Positions 1,361 through 10,235 of a stretch of 32,380 nt of DNA are shown here, one piece after another (position 1 is the stretch's first letter; every line of letters starts with the position of its first letter). The position numbers and the translations under genes were made by a program. Location of the stretch: contig JAVKIH010000027.1 of NCBI GenBank assembly GCA_031459625.1, positions 1 through 32,380 of the forward strand, in the 5' to 3' direction. Source of the DNA: Candidatus Geohabitans tengchongensis. GTDB taxonomy: Bacteria > Sysuimicrobiota > Sysuimicrobiia > Sysuimicrobiales > Humicultoraceae. The notes beneath the pieces were generated by a model. It was given only the letters and a program-made list of their open reading frames with translations. It made no database searches and was not told the origin of the DNA.

Positions 1361-2598
1361 ATGACGACGAGTCCACCGCTGTGGAAGCTGACGGCCGTGC
1401 GCCCACCGGGGGTGCGGCGGGTCGCCCTGGCCTACTCCGGCGGGTTGGACTCCTCGCTGTGCGTCGCCCTCCTGCGCGAGGTCTACCGTGTCGAGGAGGT
1501 CGTCCCCATCACCGTGGACGTCGGCCAGGGCGCCGAGGAGCTGGCCGCCGCCGCCCGCAAGGCCGCCGGGCTGGGGATCACCCCGCACGTCGTCGACGCG
1601 CGCGAGGCGTTCGCCCGAGACTGGCTGGCCCCGGCCATCCGGGCCAACGCCGACTACCTGGGCTACCCGGTGGCCACGGCCATGACCCGCCAGCTCATCG
1701 CCCGCATCGTGGCGGAGCAGGCACTGGCCCTGGGGTGCGACGCGCTGGCCGAGGGGTCCAGCGGCAAGGGCAACGACCAGTACCGCATGCACAACGTCTT
1801 CACGCTGTTCGCCCCCGGCCTGCCCGTCCTCGTCCCCGTGCGCGACCTCGACCTGACCCGCACCGAGGAGCAGGCGCTGTGCGCCCACTTCGGGATCCCC
1901 GTGGACGAGCCCATCCCCGGCGGGGACGACAAGACCCTGTGGTGCCGCTCCATCGCCAGCGGCGGCCTGGGCCTGGAGACCGAGATCCCGGACGCGGTCT
2001 GGCGGTGGTACGTCCCCCCCAGCGCGCCCCGGACCGGCCCGTCACCGTCACCCTGACGTTCGCCCGGGGCGTCCCCGTGGCGCTCGACGGCGAGCCGCTG
2101 GCGCTGGCCGACCTGGTGGAGGCGCTCAACGTCCGGGCCGGGCAGTGCGGCGTCGGGCGCATCGACATCCTGGAGGACGGCATCATGGGCCTCAAGTCGC
2201 GGGAGGTCTACGAGGCGCCGGCGGCGACCGTCATCCTGCGGGCCCACCGGGACCTGGAGCAGCTCACCCTGACCAAGGAGGAGGTGCAGTTCAAGCGCGG
2301 GGTGGACCAGGCCTGGGCGGCGCTGGTCTACCACGGGGACTGGTTCCACCCGCTGCGCGAGGACCTGGACGCCTTCATCGCCCGCTCCCAGGAGGTCGTG
2401 GAGGGGATGGTGACGCTGCGGCTGTATAAGGGCAGCGTGGAGATCACGGGGCGCACCTCCCCCCAGGCGCTCTTTGCCCCCCAGCTGCGCTCGATCGCCT
2501 CGGGCGGCTTCGACCAGCGCCTGTGCGGCCCGGCGGCGCAGATCCGCGGCCTGCCCTACCAGGTGCTGGCCCTGCGCCGGGCCCGAACGCCAGGGTGA
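1361..2598 (+). pseudogene. argG: Argininosuccinate synthase, split by a 1-nt frameshift at C7 (2014-2020); may be a sequencing error
   Basis: N-half ALAYSGGLDSS...SGKGNDQYR is in one frame; C-half GVGRIDILEDGIMGLKSREVYEAPAA is in another. One extra C gives a continuous 412-aa protein (YVPPQRAPDRPVTVTLTF). Confidence 0.85.
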
Positions 2599-2690
2599 GG
2601 TCCCGGTGACCGGCGCCGACGGCGCCCCGGCGCCGTCAACGACGACGGCGGGAGGCCGGGGGGACCGCGACGGCCCGAGGAGGCGGTGGC

Positions 2691-4037
2691 GTGAGCAAGC
2701 TCTGGGAGAAGGGCTACCGGCTGCACGAGGCGATCGAGCGCTTCGAGGTGGGGGACGACGTCTGGCTGGACCAGCGCCTGGCCTGGGCCGACCTGCTGGG
2801 CTCCATCGCCCACGCCCGCATGCTCGGCCGCATCGGCATCCTCACCGCCGAGGAGGTGGCGCGCCTGGAGGCGGCGCTGCGTGAGCTGCTGGCCGAGGCG
2901 CGCCAGGGACGCCTCACCCTGACGGTGCAGGACGAGGACATCCACACGAAGGTGGAAGGGCTGCTGGTGGAGCGCCTGGGCGACCTGGGCAAGAAGCTCC
3001 ACACCGGGCGCTCCCGCAACGACCAAGTGCTGGTCGACCTGCGGCTGTACACCAAGCGGGCGCTCCTCGACCTGCAGGAGGCGGTCCTGGCCTGCGCCGA
3101 GGCGCTCCTCGACTTCGCCGCCCGCCACCGCGACCTGCCCATGCCCGGCTACACCCACCTGCAGCGGGCCATGCTCTCCTCGGTGGGGCTGTGGGCCGGC
3201 GCCTTCGTCGAGGCCCTGCTGGACGACCTGACGCTGTGCGAGACCGCCTACCGGCTGAACGACCAGTCCCCGCTCGGCTCGGCGGCCGGCTACGGGGTCC
3301 CCCTCCCTCTCGACCGCGCCTACACGGCGCAGTTGCTGGGCTTCGCCCGGGTGCAGCCCAACGTCCTCTACGTGCAGAACAGCCGGGGGAAGTTCGAGCT
3401 GGCGGCGCTGCAGGCCGCGGCCCAGGTGGCCGTGGACCTGGCGAAGCTGGCCGAGGACCTGCTGCTCTTCACCACCAGCGAGTTCGGCTTCTTCCGCGTG
3501 GCCGAGGAGCTGGCCACGGGCTCCTCGATCATGCCCCAGAAGCGCAACCTGGACGCCGTGGAGCTGGTGCGGGCGCGCTGCCGCTGGGTGATCGGCCTGC
3601 AGGCGCAGGTGGGGACCATCGTCGCCGGCTGCCCCTCGGGCTACAACGGCGACCTGCAGGAGACGAAGCGCCCGCTCATGGAGGGGCTCGACACCGTGAC
3701 GGCCTGCCTGCGCGTCATGGCCCTCACGGTGGCCCACACCACCCCCGACCCGGAGCGGCTGGCCGCCGCCTGCACGCCGGAGCTCTTCGCCACGGACGCA
3801 GCGCTGCAGCTCGTCGCCGCGGGGGTCCCCTTCCGGGACGCCTACCGCCAGGTGGCCACAGGCGTCGTACCGGTGGAGCGGCCCGCCGACCTGGCCGCGG
3901 CCCTGGCCCGGCGCTCCTCCGAGGGGGCCCCGGGCAACCTGGGCCTGGAGGGCGCCCGGGCCCGATGGCAGGCGGAGCGGGCGCGGGTCGGGGAGGAGCG
4001 GGAGCGCTTCGAGGGCGCGCTGGCCGCCCTGGCCTGA
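2691..4037 (+). CDS. argH: Argininosuccinate lyase
   Basis: KLHTGRSRNDQV, MPGYTHLQRA, SPLGSAAGYG, GSSIMPQKRN signature; follows argG. Confidence 0.95.
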   Translation: MSKLWEKGYRLHEAIERFEVGDDVWLDQRLAWADLLGSIAHARMLGRIGILTAEEVARLEAALRELLAEARQGRLTLTVQDEDIHTKVEGLLVERLGDLGKKLHTGRSRNDQVLVDLRLYTKRALLDLQEAVLACAEALLDFAARHRDLPMPGYTHLQRAMLSSVGLWAGAFVEALLDDLTLCETAYRLNDQSPLGSAAGYGVPLPLDRAYTAQLLGFARVQPNVLYVQNSRGKFELAALQAAAQVAVDLAKLAEDLLLFTTSEFGFFRVAEELATGSSIMPQKRNLDAVELVRARCRWVIGLQAQVGTIVAGCPSGYNGDLQETKRPLMEGLDTVTACLRVMALTVAHTTPDPERLAAACTPELFATDAALQLVAAGVPFRDAYRQVATGVVPVERPADLAAALARRSSEGAPGNLGLEGARARWQAERARVGEERERFEGALAALA

Positions 4038-4153
4038 GCCCGGCCGCCGCTGCCCCGGGGAGGGCAACCACGGCCTCCCCCGCAGCCGACGAGGATCCCA
4101 CCGTCCCCCTGCAATAGAACGGGCCCGTCGGTGCGTCTCTTAGTAGGGACGCG

Positions 4154-4648
4154 ATGAGGGTGGAACCGGTGAGTCGGCCTGCTGCCGTCGAGCGCGACTT
4201 CGAAGCGTTCGTCCTCCCCCATCTCGGCTACCTGTACGGCCTGGCGGTCAGGCTGCTCGGCCAGCGCGAGGGGGCCGAGGACCTCGTCCAGGACGCGCTG
4301 CTGCGGGCCTTCCGCGGCTTCCCCCGGCTGCGTCACCACGAGCGGGGCCGGCTGTGGCTCACCCGCATCACCACCCGGGCCTACTACGACCGGTTGCACT
4401 TGGACTTCCTCGACCTCTTCGACAGCGAGAAGGTCATCGCCGTGCTGGCCGCGCTCCCGCCCGGGTACCGCACCGCCCTGATCCTGGCGTACGTGTACGG
4501 CTTCAAGGCCCGCGAGGTGGCCGAGAGCATGCGCGTCCCCCTGGGCACCGTGCTGTCCATGCTCTCGAGGGGCCGCCGGCGGCTGGAACGCGAGCTCTGG
4601 CAGTTCGCCACCACCAACGGACTGCTGCACCGGGAGGCTCGGGGATGA
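4154..4648 (+). CDS. ECF RNA polymerase sigma factor
   Basis: sigma2 AEDLVQDALLRAFR...WLTRI; sigma4 LPPGYRTALIL...GFKAREVAESMRVPLGTVLSMLSRGRRRL; start could be GTG 4169. Confidence 0.9.
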   Translation: MRVEPVSRPAAVERDFEAFVLPHLGYLYGLAVRLLGQREGAEDLVQDALLRAFRGFPRLRHHERGRLWLTRITTRAYYDRLHLDFLDLFDSEKVIAVLAALPPGYRTALILAYVYGFKAREVAESMRVPLGTVLSMLSRGRRRLERELWQFATTNGLLHREARG

Positions 4649-4670
4649 TCACGCACCGGGACGGTCGGAC

Positions 4671-4907
4671 ATGATCACGTGTCGCGAAGCGGTGGCCCGC
4701 CTGTGGGCGTACCTAGACCGCCATCTCGGGCGGGTGGAGGAGGCGGAGCTGGAGGAGCACCTGGGGCTGTGCCTCCACTGCTGCGGCGAGCTGCGCTTCG
4801 CCCAACACCTGCGCGAGCGTCTGCGTGCCTCCGGAGACTCGGCGGTGGACGAGGCGACGCGCCAGCGGCTGGAAGCCTTCGTCAGGGGCATCGGGGAGGT
4901 TGAGTAG
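4671..4907 (+). CDS. Zinc-binding anti-sigma factor (zf-HC2/ZAS, RsrA/RshA-like), soluble
   Basis: MITCREAVARLWAYLD...EEHLGLCLHCC contains HxxxCxxC; directly downstream of the ECF sigma. Confidence 0.88.
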   Translation: MITCREAVARLWAYLDRHLGRVEEAELEEHLGLCLHCCGELRFAQHLRERLRASGDSAVDEATRQRLEAFVRGIGEVE

Positions 4908-5741
4908 ATGGCGGATCCGCACCGTCACCTCGGCGCAGTGGAGTCGGGCGACCTGCTGGGCCAGGACGCCATCAAGGCGTCGGTCCGTGCCGCCTACCGG
5001 GAGATCATCGGCCAGGAGACGGGAGCGGCCGCCGCCCTCTACGATCCGGAGCAGCTGGCGGCGCTCCCCGCCGGCGCCGTCGCCCAGGCGCTGGGGGTCG
5101 GCAACCCGATCCGCCACGCCGACCTCCGGCCGGGCGAGGTGGTGGTGGACCTGGGCTGTGGCGGGGGGATCGACACGATCCTGGCGGCCCGGGCTGTGGG
5201 GCCCCAGGGGCGGGCCATCGGGCTCGACATCCTCCCGGAGATGCTCGAGGCGGCGGCGCGCCACGCCCAGGCGGCGGGCGCGACGAACGTGGAGTGGGTC
5301 CAGGGGGAGCTCGAGGCCATCCCCCTGCCCGACGGCGTGGCGGATGTGGCCATCGCCAACGGCACCGTGAACCTCTCGCCGCGCAAGTCGCGGGTCTTCG
5401 CCGAGGTCTTCCGGATCCTGCGCCCGGGCGGGCGCTTCGTGGCCGCCGACATCGTGGTGGACGAGGACCTGCCGCCGGAGATCCGGACTCACCCGGCCGC
5501 CTGGGCGGGGTGAATCTCGGGAGCGCTGGCGGAGGGGACCTTCGCCGCCAAACTGCGCAAGGCCGGCTTCGAGGCGGTCGAGCGGGTGGAGGAGCGGCCC
5601 TTCGGGCCGGAGCAGTGGGGCGCCTACCCGCTGCTCACTCCGGACCTGCTAGACCTGGTGCGACGGCTCATCCCGCCGGAGCGACAGGCGACGGTGACCC
5701 GCTCGGTGACCTTCCGGGCGCGGAAGCCCGCCGCTCCCTGA
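4908..5741 (+). CDS. ArsM-like SAM-dependent methyltransferase, probable selenoprotein (Sec202 at TGA 5511-5513), 277 aa
   Basis: SAM motif VVDLGCGGGID; LGVGNP; EVFRILRPGGRF. The frame continues past TGA as WAG-U-ISGALAEGTFAAKLRKAGF...SVTFRARKP to TGA 5739-5741, matching the ArsM W-x-G-C-I-x-G-A-L region and C-terminal strand. SECIS-like hairpin downstream. Confidence 0.85.
5514..5550 (+). promoter_or_regulatory. Putative bacterial SECIS element
   Basis: Stem GGCGGAGG (5528-5535) pairs with CCTTCGCC (5539-5546); G-led apical loop GGA begins 22 nt after the UGA. Confidence 0.65.
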
Positions 5742-5774
5742 CCGCCACCATCATCACCGGGAGGTGAGGGAGAC

Positions 5775-6377
5775 ATGGGATACGCCATCGAGGGCAAGTT
5801 GCTGGAAGCCTGCTCGTGCGCAGCCATCTGCCCCTGCTGGGTCGGCCGCGACCCCGACGGGGGCCAGTGCGACGGGCTCATCGCCTACCACTACGACCGG
5901 GGGGAGATCGACGGGGTGGACGTCTCCGGCCTCACCCTGGCCCTGGCGGTCCACATCCCCGGCAACGTCCTCCAGGGCGGGTGGAAGGTCGTGGCCTACG
6001 TCGACCGGCGGGCCACGCCGCGGCAGAAGGAGGCGATCCTGGCAGCCCACACCGGCCGGCTCGGTGGGCCGCTGGCCGACCTGGCGCCGCTCATCGGCGA
6101 GGTGCTGGGCGTGCAGGACGTGCCCATCGACTTCCACATGGCCGAGGGCCGGGGGACGGTCCGCGTGGGCGACGAGATCAGCGGGGAGATGGAGCCCCTG
6201 ACCGACCTGCAGGGGCGGCCGACGACGCTGGTGGACAGCGTCTTCAGCACGATCCCGGGCTCGCCGGCGTTTGTGGGCACGGCGCCCTCGCTGCGGGCGA
6301 CGATCCCCGCCCACGGGATCGCCTGGGCCTTCGAAGGCCGGAACGCCGTCCTGGGCTCGTTCCGCTTCGCCGCCTGA
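5775..6377 (+). CDS. DUF1326-family protein (Cys-rich N-terminus, putative metal binding)
   Basis: EACSCAAICPCW...GQCDG...GEIDGVDVSGL...PGNVLQGGW...YVDRRATPRQKEAI; GGAGG/GAGGGAG RBS. Confidence 0.8.
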   Translation: MGYAIEGKLLEACSCAAICPCWVGRDPDGGQCDGLIAYHYDRGEIDGVDVSGLTLALAVHIPGNVLQGGWKVVAYVDRRATPRQKEAILAAHTGRLGGPLADLAPLIGEVLGVQDVPIDFHMAEGRGTVRVGDEISGEMEPLTDLQGRPTTLVDSVFSTIPGSPAFVGTAPSLRATIPAHGIAWAFEGRNAVLGSFRFAA

Positions 6378-6423
6378 GGCGCCCGTGCGCACCGGGCCGC
6401 TGGGCGACGGGTCCGCACCGTCT

Positions 6424-7206
6424 ATGATCGACGCGCTGCGCACGTCCGACGACCGCCGCTGGTACACTCTGGCGGTAGCCGCGGTGGTCCTCTTCGCCTG
6501 GCTGACCCTGGCGGCCTGGGGGCGGTCCCCCTACGCGGTCTTCCTGGGCCACGGCGACGCCGGGGAGGTGTTCCCTCCGCCAGCGGGATCCTCCCCGGCG
6601 CTCCGCCTCGGCCTCTTCGTCGGCGGGTGGGTGCTCATGACGGTGGCGATGATGCTCCCCGCCAGCCTGCCGCTCCTCACCCTCTTCCGGCGGATGGTGC
6701 ACCACCGCCGCCGTCGCGGGGGGCTGCTCGTCGCCCTGAGTGCGGGGTACCTAGGCGTGTGGGGCCTCTTCGGCCTGGGGGCCTACACCGGCGACCGGGT
6801 GGTCCACGTCGTCGTCGACCGCGCGGGCGCCGGGGCGGCGGCGGCCGCGCTGCTCCTCCCCACGGTCCTGCTGGCCGCCGGGCTCTACCAGTTCACCGGC
6901 TTGAAGGACCGCTGCCTGCAGGCCTGCCGGTCCCCCTACCTGTTCGTAGCCGAACGGTGGCGCGGCCGGCGGCCCGCGCTCGAGGCCTTCCGGCTGGGGG
7001 TGGACCACGGGCTCTTCTGCGTGGGGTGTTGCTGGACGCTGATGCTCCTGATGTTCGCCGTGGGGGTGGGGCACCTGACCTGGATGCTGGTGCTGGGCGC
7101 GGTCATGGGCACCGAACGCGCCGCGCCCTGGGGACGGGCCCTCACCCGTCCCGTGGGCGTGCTGCTGGTGCTCTGGGCCCTGGGCCGCCTGGTGCGCGGG
7201 GCGTAG
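6424..7206 (+). CDS. DUF2182-family predicted metal-binding integral membrane protein
   Basis: WVLMTVAMMLP, AGLYQFTGLKDRCLQACRSP, GLFCVGCCWTLMLLMFAVG; several TM helices; usual partner of DUF1326; start uncertain. Confidence 0.85.
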   Translation: MIDALRTSDDRRWYTLAVAAVVLFAWLTLAAWGRSPYAVFLGHGDAGEVFPPPAGSSPALRLGLFVGGWVLMTVAMMLPASLPLLTLFRRMVHHRRRRGGLLVALSAGYLGVWGLFGLGAYTGDRVVHVVVDRAGAGAAAAALLLPTVLLAAGLYQFTGLKDRCLQACRSPYLFVAERWRGRRPALEAFRLGVDHGLFCVGCCWTLMLLMFAVGVGHLTWMLVLGAVMGTERAAPWGRALTRPVGVLLVLWALGRLVRGA

Positions 7207-7221
7207 TGGCCGGCGCGACGG

Positions 7222-7992
7222 CTAGAGCAGCTTCACCCCGTTGATGGTCAGCTTGAAGGAGCACCCCAGGAACTCGGCGGCCCGCCGGCACATCACCATG
7301 CGCGTGAGGAAGATCTCGAAGTACTCCATCACCGGCGAGCTCTCGGTGTCGATGACCAGTTCGAGGGTGATGGTGCGGCTCTTCTCGTCCACGCGCAGGA
7401 AGGAGTGCTCCACCGCGTAGTTCACCCGGTCGTGGATGTCAAAGGTGGTCGGGTCGGGGTTGCGCACCCGGGTGCGGTGGACGTCCGACTTGTCGGAGAG
7501 GATGACGGCGGCGCCCACCGCGCTCACCGGCTCGCCGTGCGGTTCCTCGTGGTTGCCGATGGCCCCCATGACCACCGCCCGCTCGTCCGGGGCCATCCCC
7601 AGGCGGGCCAGGATCCCACCGGCCAGCACCGCCCCGGTGTGCTCGTGGTTCACCCGACCCACCAGGTTGCCGATGTCGTGCAGGTAGCCGGCCACGGCGG
7701 CGAGCTGGGCCTGGCGGTCGTCGTAGCCCAGTCGCTTGAGGATGTTGTAGGCGATGTTGGCCGTCAGGTTGGCGTGGCGGAAGCCGTGCTCCGTGTAGCC
7801 GATGGCGCCGGTGTACTCGTTGGCCTTCTCGATGTAGGCGGCCACCTCGGGGTCGCGCTTGACCTCCTCCAGCGAGACCCCCGGCCGCTGCGGCGGCGGG
7901 GTGGTCTCGACCAGGGCCCCCGCCGCCTCCTCCGGCGCCGGCGGGGCCGGCGGGACGACCCGCCGGCGGGCCCGCGCCCGCGCCACCCTCAC
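7222..7992 (-). CDS. HD-domain phosphohydrolase
   Basis: GYTEHGFRH...GYLHDIGN...AIGNHEE...LSDKSDVHRTRVR; coupled to yajC. Confidence 0.85.
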   Translation of the reverse strand: MRVARARARRRVVPPAPPAPEEAAGALVETTPPPQRPGVSLEEVKRDPEVAAYIEKANEYTGAIGYTEHGFRHANLTANIAYNILKRLGYDDRQAQLAAVAGYLHDIGNLVGRVNHEHTGAVLAGGILARLGMAPDERAVVMGAIGNHEEPHGEPVSAVGAAVILSDKSDVHRTRVRNPDPTTFDIHDRVNYAVEHSFLRVDEKSRTITLELVIDTESSPVMEYFEIFLTRMVMCRRAAEFLGCSFKLTINGVKLL

Positions 7993-8294
7993 CGCCGCCC
8001 CCCGGCGGCGCGCTCCGGCATCGCCGCCACCCGGCCGCGCACGCTCTGGACGGCGGCGCGGTCGGCCCGCACGCGCACGTTGGGGGCCAGCTCCAGCACC
8101 AGGACGTCGTCCTTCACCTCGAGGATGGTGGCGTGCAGGCCGCCGATGGTGACGACGCGGTCGCCCGGCCGCAGCGCCGCCAGCATCTCCCGGCGCCGCC
8201 GCATCTGCACCATCTGCGGCCGCCAGAAGAGCAGGTACATCAGCACGAAGAAGACGAGCAGCGGGATGAGCCCCGCCAGCTGCTGGCTGGTCAT
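7989..8294 (-). CDS. yajC: Preprotein translocase subunit YajC
   Basis: MTSQQLAGLIPLLVFFVLMYLLFWRPQ...LRPGDRVVTIGGLHATI (C-terminal part of the 7989..9767 ORF). Confidence 0.93.
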   Translation of the reverse strand: MTSQQLAGLIPLLVFFVLMYLLFWRPQMVQMRRRREMLAALRPGDRVVTIGGLHATILEVKDDVLVLELAPNVRVRADRAAVQSVRGRVAAMPERAAGGRR

Positions 8295-8438
8295 CGACAC
8301 GACTCCTCTCCGGGCGCCGCAGCGCCGCCGGCGGACGGCGTCCCGACCGCTCCCGACCGCCCGGGCCCCTCGCCGGGCTGCCGACGCGCCCGCTACAATA
8401 GCACCGCTACCATAGCACGTCTGCGGGGAGGAGGACGG

Positions 8439-8906
8439 ATGGCCGAGGAACGGGAGCTCTCCCGGGAGGAGAAGATCGCCGCCGCGCGCGCCAAGGTGGA
8501 GGCGATCAAGCGGCAGCGGGCGGCTGCGCAGGCCGGGCAGGCCGCGGCGGCGCCCCAGGCCGCGGCGGCGCGGACGCTGGAGGTCCCCGTCTCCTCCGTG
8601 AACCCGGGCGGGCGGCCCGTGGACAAGATCGAGGGGCGCACCGTGGTGGCCTACGGCACCGTGAACCAGGCCGTGGACATCGTCGGCGGGCCGGAGGACC
8701 AGGAGAACCTGAAGAAGCTCCTCGGCGGGATCAGCGGCTATCCCAACCCGCTGCGCCGCAACGCGATCCAGGTGGACTACCGGTACTACCGCGAGGCCCG
8801 ACGGCGGCTGGAGGCGGCCGGCTACCGCGTCGAGGAGCGGGACTACCTCGGGCGGCCCCTCAGCGAATGGACGCCCGAGCGGCGCGGCTGGACGCGGGTG
8901 GAGTGA
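8439..8906 (+). CDS. Hypothetical protein (155 aa)
   Basis: Strong GGAGGAGG RBS before ATG 8439; GC3-biased codons; no family recognised. Confidence 0.75.
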   Translation: MAEERELSREEKIAAARAKVEAIKRQRAAAQAGQAAAAPQAAAARTLEVPVSSVNPGGRPVDKIEGRTVVAYGTVNQAVDIVGGPEDQENLKKLLGGISGYPNPLRRNAIQVDYRYYREARRRLEAAGYRVEERDYLGRPLSEWTPERRGWTRVE

Positions 8907-8954
8907 CGCCCCGGGCACCGGGGCCGCCCACGACCTGACCGCGTCCTGACGGCC

Positions 8955-10235
<1,281 letters not shown>

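Follow-up and report, generated by a model that had tools for sequence, protein, structure and literature searches.

A conserved ECF sigma factor module with an ArsM-fold, predicted selenocysteine-containing methyltransferase and exchangeable accessory genes in Candidatus Geohabitans tengchongensis

The DNA analysed here, referred to as the window, is a 32,380-nucleotide stretch of contig JAVKIH010000027.1 from Candidatus Geohabitans tengchongensis (GenBank assembly GCA_031459625.1). Five co-oriented open reading frames (ORFs) lie at 4154-7206 on its forward strand, with argH before them and an HD-domain gene after. Both ORF calls and profile matches bear out this arrangement, which had been described in an initial annotation made from the sequence alone. 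The first gene (4154..4648) encodes a SigH/SigR-like extracytoplasmic function (ECF) sigma factor, with Pfam PF04542 and PF08281 (sigma70 r2 and r4_2) and TIGR02937 all over cut-off. The second (4671..4907) encodes a soluble, RsrA-like zinc-binding anti-sigma factor (ZAS; PF13490, zf-HC2, over cut-off). The third (4908..5741), assigned by family profiles and alignment, encodes an S-adenosylmethionine (SAM)-dependent methyltransferase of the ArsM fold, which is a predicted selenoprotein with selenocysteine (Sec) at residue 202 (U202). The last two encode a DUF1326 protein of the DmdF family (5775..6377; PF07040, E 1.9e-53) and a helical membrane protein of the DUF2182/PpoB2 or DmdE family (6424..7206; PF09948 'Copper chaperone', E 4e-60). 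The intergenic gaps are 22, 0, 33 and 46 nt respectively, and all of the thiol and selenol motifs previously listed for these proteins were found in place.

The conserved unit is the core of ECF sigma factor, ZAS and ArsM-fold methyltransferase, and the DUF1326-DUF2182 pair is one exchangeable accessory among several. Set A consisted of the 24 genomes, among 94 in the phylum, with an orthologous methyltransferase. The ECF gene adjoins the methyltransferase in all 24, ZAS is found in 23 and the complete core in 23. Accessory counts in set A, which are minima as several contigs end inside the cluster, were 16 for AhpD/CMD-like genes (one a remnant), 8 for OsmC-like genes, 8 for the DUF pair, 4 for cupins and 1 for DsrE. 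Set B comprised 52 of the 63 loci from a genome scan, mostly Chloroflexota and some Actinomycetota; L063-L065, which are of the own-phylum type and may duplicate set A, were left out, as were three loci with canonical ArsM (L116, L119 and L120), two from another clade (L121 and L122) and the weak L123-L125. Of the 52 loci kept, 47 have an ECF gene, 48 have ZAS, 44 have OsmC and 29 have a second methyltransferase poor in cysteine; DsrE occurs in 2 and the DUF pair in none. Set C was drawn from 38 metagenome loci found with a full-length sigma, two of which had distant sigmas and were dropped. The remaining 36 include 19 with a methyltransferase, 11 with OsmC, 10 with AhpD, 3 with DsrE and 6 with DUF2182, the DUF2182 gene being co-oriented downstream in four (L175, L180, L181 and L183). 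The accessories alternate, the DUF1326-DUF2182 pair at some loci and OsmC-, AhpD-, DsrE- or cupin-like genes at others, and all recurrent partners except the cupins are thiol or selenol proteins. The initial annotation had made conservation in other genomes the test of its proposal; this conservation holds for the three-gene core, and the neighbourhood counts do not bear out the five families as a unit.

The module is common in Chloroflexota metagenome-assembled genomes of many origins, and the core is also present in a cultured species, Blastococcus deserti (L109). No highly identical member of the ECF-linked clade was found on a plasmid (best matches <60%). Two core modules, both complete, lie 4 kb apart on opposite strands at L179. 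Eight metagenome loci (L186-L193) have the sigma, the anti-sigma and divergent promoter motifs, with no methyltransferase match downstream even where the flank is long (L188 and L189). The OsmC-like partner (L084:3534-4094 on the reverse strand) has invariant Cys at 95 and 160 across 55 homologous hits and Ser at 167, presumably the site of the usual second Cys. The AhpD-like partner has S-x-x-C in place of C-x-x-C.

A candidate promoter for the module was recognized by aligning upstream regions, in which a GCAAT...CGTC pattern was seen and generalized to G[GC]AATA-N16/17-CGTC. In the window this predicted cognate ECF promoter is GCAATA-N17-CGTC (4111..4137, forward strand), and the site at 4111 is the only strict match in the 2.76-Mb genome, in which about 1.8 would be expected from word counts. 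The motif lies upstream of the ECF gene in 20/23, 44/46 and 30/33 of the loci with enough flank in sets A, B and C respectively. In set B it is also found on the opposite strand in 43 of the 46 loci, where OsmC is divergent. A random-window promoter control (838/22400) contains true sites and was not used. These matches suggest that the module sigma reads G[GC]AATA-N16/17-CGTC.

The same motif was found in front of detached or rearranged units. In G004 it precedes a unit of DsrE-like selenoprotein, DUF1326 and DUF2182 genes located 16 kb from the core; in G027 it precedes a DsrE-cupin-OsmC unit, in G045 an OsmC-DUF1326-DUF2182 unit followed by the core, and in G095 a second methyltransferase. 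In addition, a distant DUF1326/DUF2182 paralogue pair (29%/40% identity) joined the same operon at L183. The motif-bearing detached units and L183 are the best evidence that the DUF pair may be co-regulated with the core and is not a passenger. DsrE-like selenoproteins with a YV-U-GGC (UxxC) motif lie under the promoter motif at L044:6546-6905 (reverse strand), L176:8188-8547, L179:8357-8716 and L236:3303-3662 (reverse strand); standard ORF calling stops each at its TGA. A wider regulon was also sought. At 31 further loci with the motif that were inspected, most sites fall within genes or abut them and resemble chance matches, and neither thioredoxin nor methionine sulfoxide reductase genes were found behind them.

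The sigma gene of the window is damaged. Its true start is likely the GTG at 4169, judging from alignment with relatives, and the protein is 34-35 residues shorter than its orthologues, with a 34-residue gap against the L046 sigma. Contigs X5 (record 17) and X6 (record 23), from two other studies and about 97% identical to the window, contain 105 extra nt at 4382-4397. This forward-strand junction (4382..4397) lies at an imperfect direct repeat and marks where 105 nt (35 codons) of the linker between sigma2 and sigma4 were lost in frame. An assembly error was considered and rejected: contigs X1 and X4, from the possible source study, show no differences from the window across the junction, though they may be source material. 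The lost segment takes in the conserved linker motif of the sigma family, DPFPYSDxxHLDF, and about 10 residues are left between the Pfam r2 and r4 matches, too few for the linker that a functional ECF sigma needs to thread polymerase. The corresponding linker of E. coli sigmaE is reported to be 43 residues long, and its removal to abolish full-length transcripts (PMC6648896). Because the linker is mostly lost and in view of the E. coli precedent, the sigma of this strain is probably non-functional and its switch broken; the operon would then be uncoupled from its switch here. The view that the module is self-regulated is supported for the thiol/selenol core conserved elsewhere, whose predicted promoter would also drive the DUF pair, and probably fails for the copy in which it was first seen.

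Some expression could still arise through read-through from argH, no terminator having been found, or through a paralogous ECF sigma in the genome (39% identical to the module sigma). A search of 3900-7500 for a sigma70 promoter and an intrinsic terminator found neither. In a single RNA run (X4), operon depth was flat and equal to that of flanking genes on long contigs; this run may be DNA and is uninformative on expression. Frameshifts or gene losses were also seen in the modules of G023, G034, G060 and G031, which suggests frequent decay of the module or assembly errors. Owing to its damaged sigma, the window copy is a poor choice for experiments.

The anti-sigma contains the zinc motif C4, H30-x3-C34-x2-C37-C38, and C4, H30, C34 and C37 are retained in 102 of 103 anti-sigma hits. 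An ECF gene beside a soluble ZAS with four zinc ligands is the arrangement of the SigR/SigH-RsrA/RshA pairs. The start of the anti-sigma gene is partly duplicated over 26 nt, which creates a 9-codon mini-ORF (4645..4674, forward strand), recognized by sequence and alignment. This ORF overlaps both the stop of the sigma gene and the start of the anti-sigma gene, so that the chain of overlapping stops and starts is kept. The near-identical strains X5 and X6 share this duplication, and their alignment is gap-free across it. At L140 (G031) the anti-sigma is missing and the sigma gene runs straight into the methyltransferase.

The methyltransferase frame is open through a single TGA (5511-5513) to the stop at 5741, and this TGA aligns with the position of Cys224 in CmArsM. 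Of 91 near-full-length hits in the collected loci, 39 have a stop at position 202 and 52 have Cys. Among the 24 orthologous loci in the phylum, 22 use TGA at this codon and 2 use TGC, and all 52 loci from other phyla use TGC or TGT. A hairpin resembling a bacterial Sec insertion element (5527-5547; feature 5511..5547 including the TGA, forward strand) starts 13 nt past the UGA. Its folding energy is no better than that of shuffles (z -0.4 to 0.2; the DNA is 73% GC), and an Rfam scan of 2500-9000 gave no match. Of the loci that were folded, the TGA-bearing ECF-linked ones form the same stem and the Chloroflexota Cys homologues do not. The genome also encodes selA, selB and selD, all over curated cut-offs, and tRNA-Sec (selC). 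Because of the TGA/Cys alignment, the conserved hairpin and the presence of selA, selB, selC and selD, the in-frame TGA very likely encodes Sec. Sec in the ArsM-type UxxG family has already been catalogued (PMC13188914). A stand-alone Sec methyltransferase clade (L143-L152) is marked by GL/MGNP, NGVINL and AYAG-U-LAG motifs and has neither the sigma nor a Cys at position 237.

The top family score of the methyltransferase is to NF008823 (233 bits, cut-off 263), and it falls below the cut-offs of all the arsenite-methyltransferase profiles (NF008823, NF041537, NF041536 and NF047649). In CmArsM, Cys72 and Cys174 correspond to V64 and G152 of the window protein, and there is no Cys at the Cys44 position; of the canonical ArsM/AS3MT cysteines (Cys44/72/174/224), Cys224 is the one replaced by Sec, at U202. 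Position 64 is V or I, and position 152 is G, in 91/91 hits. Canonical ArsM is reported to bind arsenic via Cys174 and Cys224, with four cysteines required when As(III) is the substrate (PMC6138428). Elsewhere the genome has an arsR-GNAT-arsM cluster (L153:5515-7223, G000 contig C12) whose ArsM keeps all three cysteines, and no ars genes were found among the recurrent neighbour clusters of the module. The case for a metal(loid) substrate, one of those put forward initially, is weakened by the lost Cys72 and Cys174 equivalents and the separate ars operon.

A new cysteine, Cys237, is present in 87 of the 91 ECF-linked hits; neither canonical ArsM nor the stand-alone Sec clade has it. The window protein and five fragments from close relatives have W237. 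Strain-specific decay was rejected as an explanation, as Trp was found in all close-relative fragments read; the lineage would therefore rely on U202 alone. The idea that all effectors are single-Cys carriers was also rejected, because OsmC has two invariant Cys and most of the methyltransferases have Cys237. In an unrooted tree of 67 rows, built from a chosen subset of 51 loci, the ECF-linked methyltransferases group together with support (36 rows, 96/86), and the stand-alone Sec clade is their sister. The second methyltransferases make up a group of their own, likewise without Cys72 and Cys174 equivalents. Among named sequences, those nearest to the methyltransferase come from Ca. Sysuimicrobiota genomes, and many cysteine-poor ArsM-like methyltransferases carry the source label 'arsenite methyltransferase'.

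DUF1326 and DUF2182, taken at the outset to be uncharacterized, correspond to families with reported functions, DUF1326 to DmdF and DUF2182 to DmdE and PpoB2 (PMC12992908; PMC2855505). Pfam's present name for DUF2182 is PpoB2. PF07040 and PF09948 genes are adjacent here as they are in Ruegeria, and the dmdR-dmdA-acuI context is absent from the window locus. Ruegeria dmdE and dmdF mutants are reported to fail on dimethylsulfoniopropionate (DMSP), with partial rescue by deletion of the demethylase, and purified DmdF is reported as a peroxidase that consumes H2O2 and releases oxygen (PMC12992908). The DMSP demethylation pathway yields methanethiol (PMC12904073). PpoB2 is reported to deliver copper to tyrosinase (PMC2855505).

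The N-terminal cluster of DUF1326 reads C13-x-C15-x3-C19-P-C21...C32, in which C13, C19, C21 and C32 are invariant in 120 sequences; the cluster may form a metal site. The structural model (mean predicted confidence, pLDDT, 92) is a beta fold like that of acetoacetate decarboxylase, with a Cys-rich N-terminus. Foldseek matched it to MppR (E 5e-6), and VIA comparisons gave Z 9.8-10.6 (root-mean-square deviation 3.6-4.1, 155-160 residues aligned), a fold likeness taken as no proof of function. A MoaC match (E 0.0013) was rejected as the predicted fold disagrees, and a DUF1326 selenoprotein in G034 (two TGA codons) was rejected as a frameshift. DUF2182 has the motifs MTVAMM, C164-x3-C168 and CVGCC, and H43, M72, H128, C164, C168, H195, C199 and C203 are invariant in 119 homologues. 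Its model is all-helical (pLDDT 86), and a fold search with it gave nothing clear (Foldseek best E 0.55; VIA best Z 6.7). An ESM Atlas search returned same-family clusters only. Complex prediction for the two proteins scored 0.00 (mark 0.32), which counts neither for nor against pairing. Three tandem DUF1326 paralogues precede one DUF2182 gene at L157 (G018:C1041), and at L145 a DUF2182 gene lies downstream of a stand-alone Sec methyltransferase gene. On a Caballeronia plasmid (L205:2209-7417), a tyrosinase-family gene about 2.3 kb from the DUF pair recalls PpoB1/PpoB2.

The module may serve in thiol-stress-induced methylation of a thiophilic molecule, a tentative reading in which reduced sulfur is put first among the candidates. 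Four points favour this ranking: DsrE is linked to the module, the DmdEF phenotype was seen in a pathway that releases methanethiol, MddH/MddM and TPMT set a precedent, and the ars operon is separate. Oxidation of the ZAS thiols, or adduct formation on them, would release zinc and the sigma as in RshA/SigH, and the freed sigma would read the G[GC]AATA-N16/17-CGTC promoters in a positive loop. RshA-type ZAS sensors are reported to respond to oxidative stress (PMC8999054). U202 would then capture H2S or persulfide sulfur, or methanethiol, in place of the arsenic held on Cys224; SAM would methylate the captured sulfur, and Cys237 or a low-molecular-weight thiol would release methanethiol or dimethyl sulfide (DMS). 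Sulfane sulfur would be carried by the DsrE-like proteins, peroxide removed by the OsmC-, AhpD- and DmdF-like proteins, and metal, likely copper, supplied at the membrane by DmdE. S-methylation of H2S, methanethiol and persulfides has precedents as detoxification (PMC12904073; PMC13089183). A more specific version is doubtful at present. In it, a selenoenzyme derived from ArsM would hold sulfur as a selenyl-sulfide on U202, resolved by Cys237, and would be fed by DsrE and coupled to DmdEF in a regulon that detoxifies reactive sulfur across phyla.

Several observations weigh against the sulfur reading and the regulon drawn around it. The promoter motif was derived from the window locus and its relatives, so its match in the window is not independent. 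DsrE occurs in few loci, namely 1/24, 2/52 and 3/36 in sets A, B and C within 6.5 kb, in addition to two detached units. The nearest characterized enzymes are arsenite methyltransferases (canonical ArsM proteins from related genomes are 46-57% identical), and Cys237 could belong to a rebuilt two-thiol arsenic site. Four plasmid records have the DUF pair with no ECF or methyltransferase gene alongside, and many close DUF1326 orthologues in the phylum stand alone without the module context. The DmdF paper ascribes the mutant phenotype to H2O2 and not to methanethiol, and calls dmdEF-like genes outside Roseobacters phylogenetically distinct (PMC12992908).

Four other explanations of the module were weighed. 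Detoxification of organoarsenicals (or Sb/Te) is rather unlikely; MAs(III), DMAs(III) or methylated thioarsenicals would be bound through U202 alone or with Cys237 and methylated, complementing the canonical ArsM. The ArsM fold, the top score to NF008823 and the conservation of Cys237 all favour it, and the ZAS sensor would respond to trivalent arsenicals as well. NCBIfam includes an ArsM/AhpD fusion selenoprotein (NF041537), in keeping with the AhpD-like neighbour seen in 16/24 loci, and the source runs are metagenomes of hot springs, which are often arsenic-rich. DMAs(III) is reported to bind the single Cys224, and methylation of MAs(III) to need two cysteines only (PMC6138428). However, neither ArsR, arsenate reductase nor arsenite exporter genes occur among the neighbour clusters, save an ArsR-like gene in 3/63 loci beside a separate canonical ArsM, and both the separate ars cluster and the many origins of the Chloroflexota modules count against it. 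Unlikely too is a general response to oxidants or electrophiles (peroxide, hypochlorite, quinone or isothiocyanate), in which peroxidase-like accessories would be the main effectors and the methyltransferase would cap an organic thiol or damaged protein residue. It would suit the oxidative response of RshA-type sensors (PMC8999054) and the commonest partners, which are OsmC with its two invariant Cys, AhpD/CMD-like proteins and the reported H2O2 consumer DmdF; yet the invariant effector is a methyltransferase and not a peroxidase, and the 31 motif-bearing loci inspected yielded no thioredoxin or methionine sulfoxide reductase genes.

Volatilization of selenium or tellurium, in which selenide or methylselenol on the active-site thiol or selenol would become dimethyl selenide, is very unlikely. 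Its chemistry is that of the sulfur model, TPMT is reported to methylate selenite-derived anions (PMC13089183) and two regulon members are selenoproteins, but Cys rather than Sec occupies the site in the 52 loci of other phyla, and no selenium transport or reduction genes were found among the recurrent neighbours. The last explanation concerns the DUF pair alone, which could be a passenger that landed downstream of the core and serves an unrelated process such as copper handling. The absence of the pair from 16/24 phylum loci and 52/52 others, its occurrence alone in many genomes and the copper delivery to tyrosinase reported for PpoB2 (PMC2855505) speak for this explanation. It is nevertheless improbable, as the detached pair of G004 keeps the cognate promoter motif, gene orders differ in G045, L175, L180 and L181, the distant paralogue pair was recruited in L183, and DUF2182 follows the Sec methyltransferase in L145.

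With its promoter, sensor and genes defined, the module offers a way to test what cysteine-poor ArsM-like methyltransferases do. If the substrate is sulfur, 'arsenite methyltransferase' labels would inflate estimates of arsenic methylation. DUF1326 and DUF2182 gain a further regulatory setting, one free of DMSP, that is relevant to the role of DmdE. If the reactive-sulfur regulon is true, a new route to methanethiol and DMS would exist in soils and hot springs, many 'arsenite methyltransferases' would be re-annotated, and DmdEF would be suggested to handle methanethiol or sulfane sulfur, not peroxide only.

Among known systems, the switch is like SigR-RsrA of Streptomyces and SigH-RshA of Mycobacterium, with an ECF gene beside a soluble ZAS and the spacing C-x25-H-x3-C-x2-C. 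Its best NCBIfam matches are TIGR02947 for the sigma and TIGR03988 for the anti-sigma, and the predicted -35 element is GGAAT-like, as in the SigR consensus. However, TIGR02947 scores are 84.6 for the window sigma and 99.7 for a full-length orthologue against a cut-off of 251.55, and the TIGR03988 score is 37.8 bits against 62.5. The module anti-sigma also has an extra Cys38, the sigma has the distinct linker DPFPYSDxxHLDF, and the predicted regulon is a handful of genes, unlike the thioredoxin/mycothiol network of SigR/SigH. The methyltransferase shares its fold, SAM motif and Sec at the Cys224 position with the ArsM/AS3MT UxxG selenoproteins, but has no Cys44/72/174 equivalents, forms its own clade and lies outside ars operons. 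MddA, MddH, MddM1/2 and TPMT are comparable by proposed S-methylation chemistry only, and in the parts of their literature available they are not reported as ArsM-like or as selenoproteins.

The DUF pair is likened by family and adjacency to DmdE-DmdF of Ruegeria lacuscaerulensis, linked there to oxidative stress in DMSP demethylation (PMC12992908). Here the order is reversed, with DUF1326 first, a predicted ECF promoter takes the place of the GntR repressor DmdR, and the dmdA/acuI context is lacking. PpoB2 of Marinomonas mediterranea shares PF09948, membrane helices and Met/His/Cys motifs with the DUF2182 protein (PMC2855505), but the window locus has no tyrosinase. A literature search, with most subscription papers beyond its reach, found no description of the module, which is apparently widespread across bacteria and undescribed. 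The closest analogue in the literature is the self-contained ECF regulon of SCO3450 in S. coelicolor, whose ECF gene is flanked by genes for zinc-finger anti-sigmas, methyltransferases and oxidoreductases (bioRxiv 10.1101/247056). Compared by description, that regulon differs in size (about 26 genes), in ECF group (ECF01) and in its proposed promoter, AACGG...CG (bioRxiv 10.1101/247056). What this analysis adds is Cys237, the deletion in the sigma gene, and a promoter motif that ties both the DUF pair and DsrE to the core.

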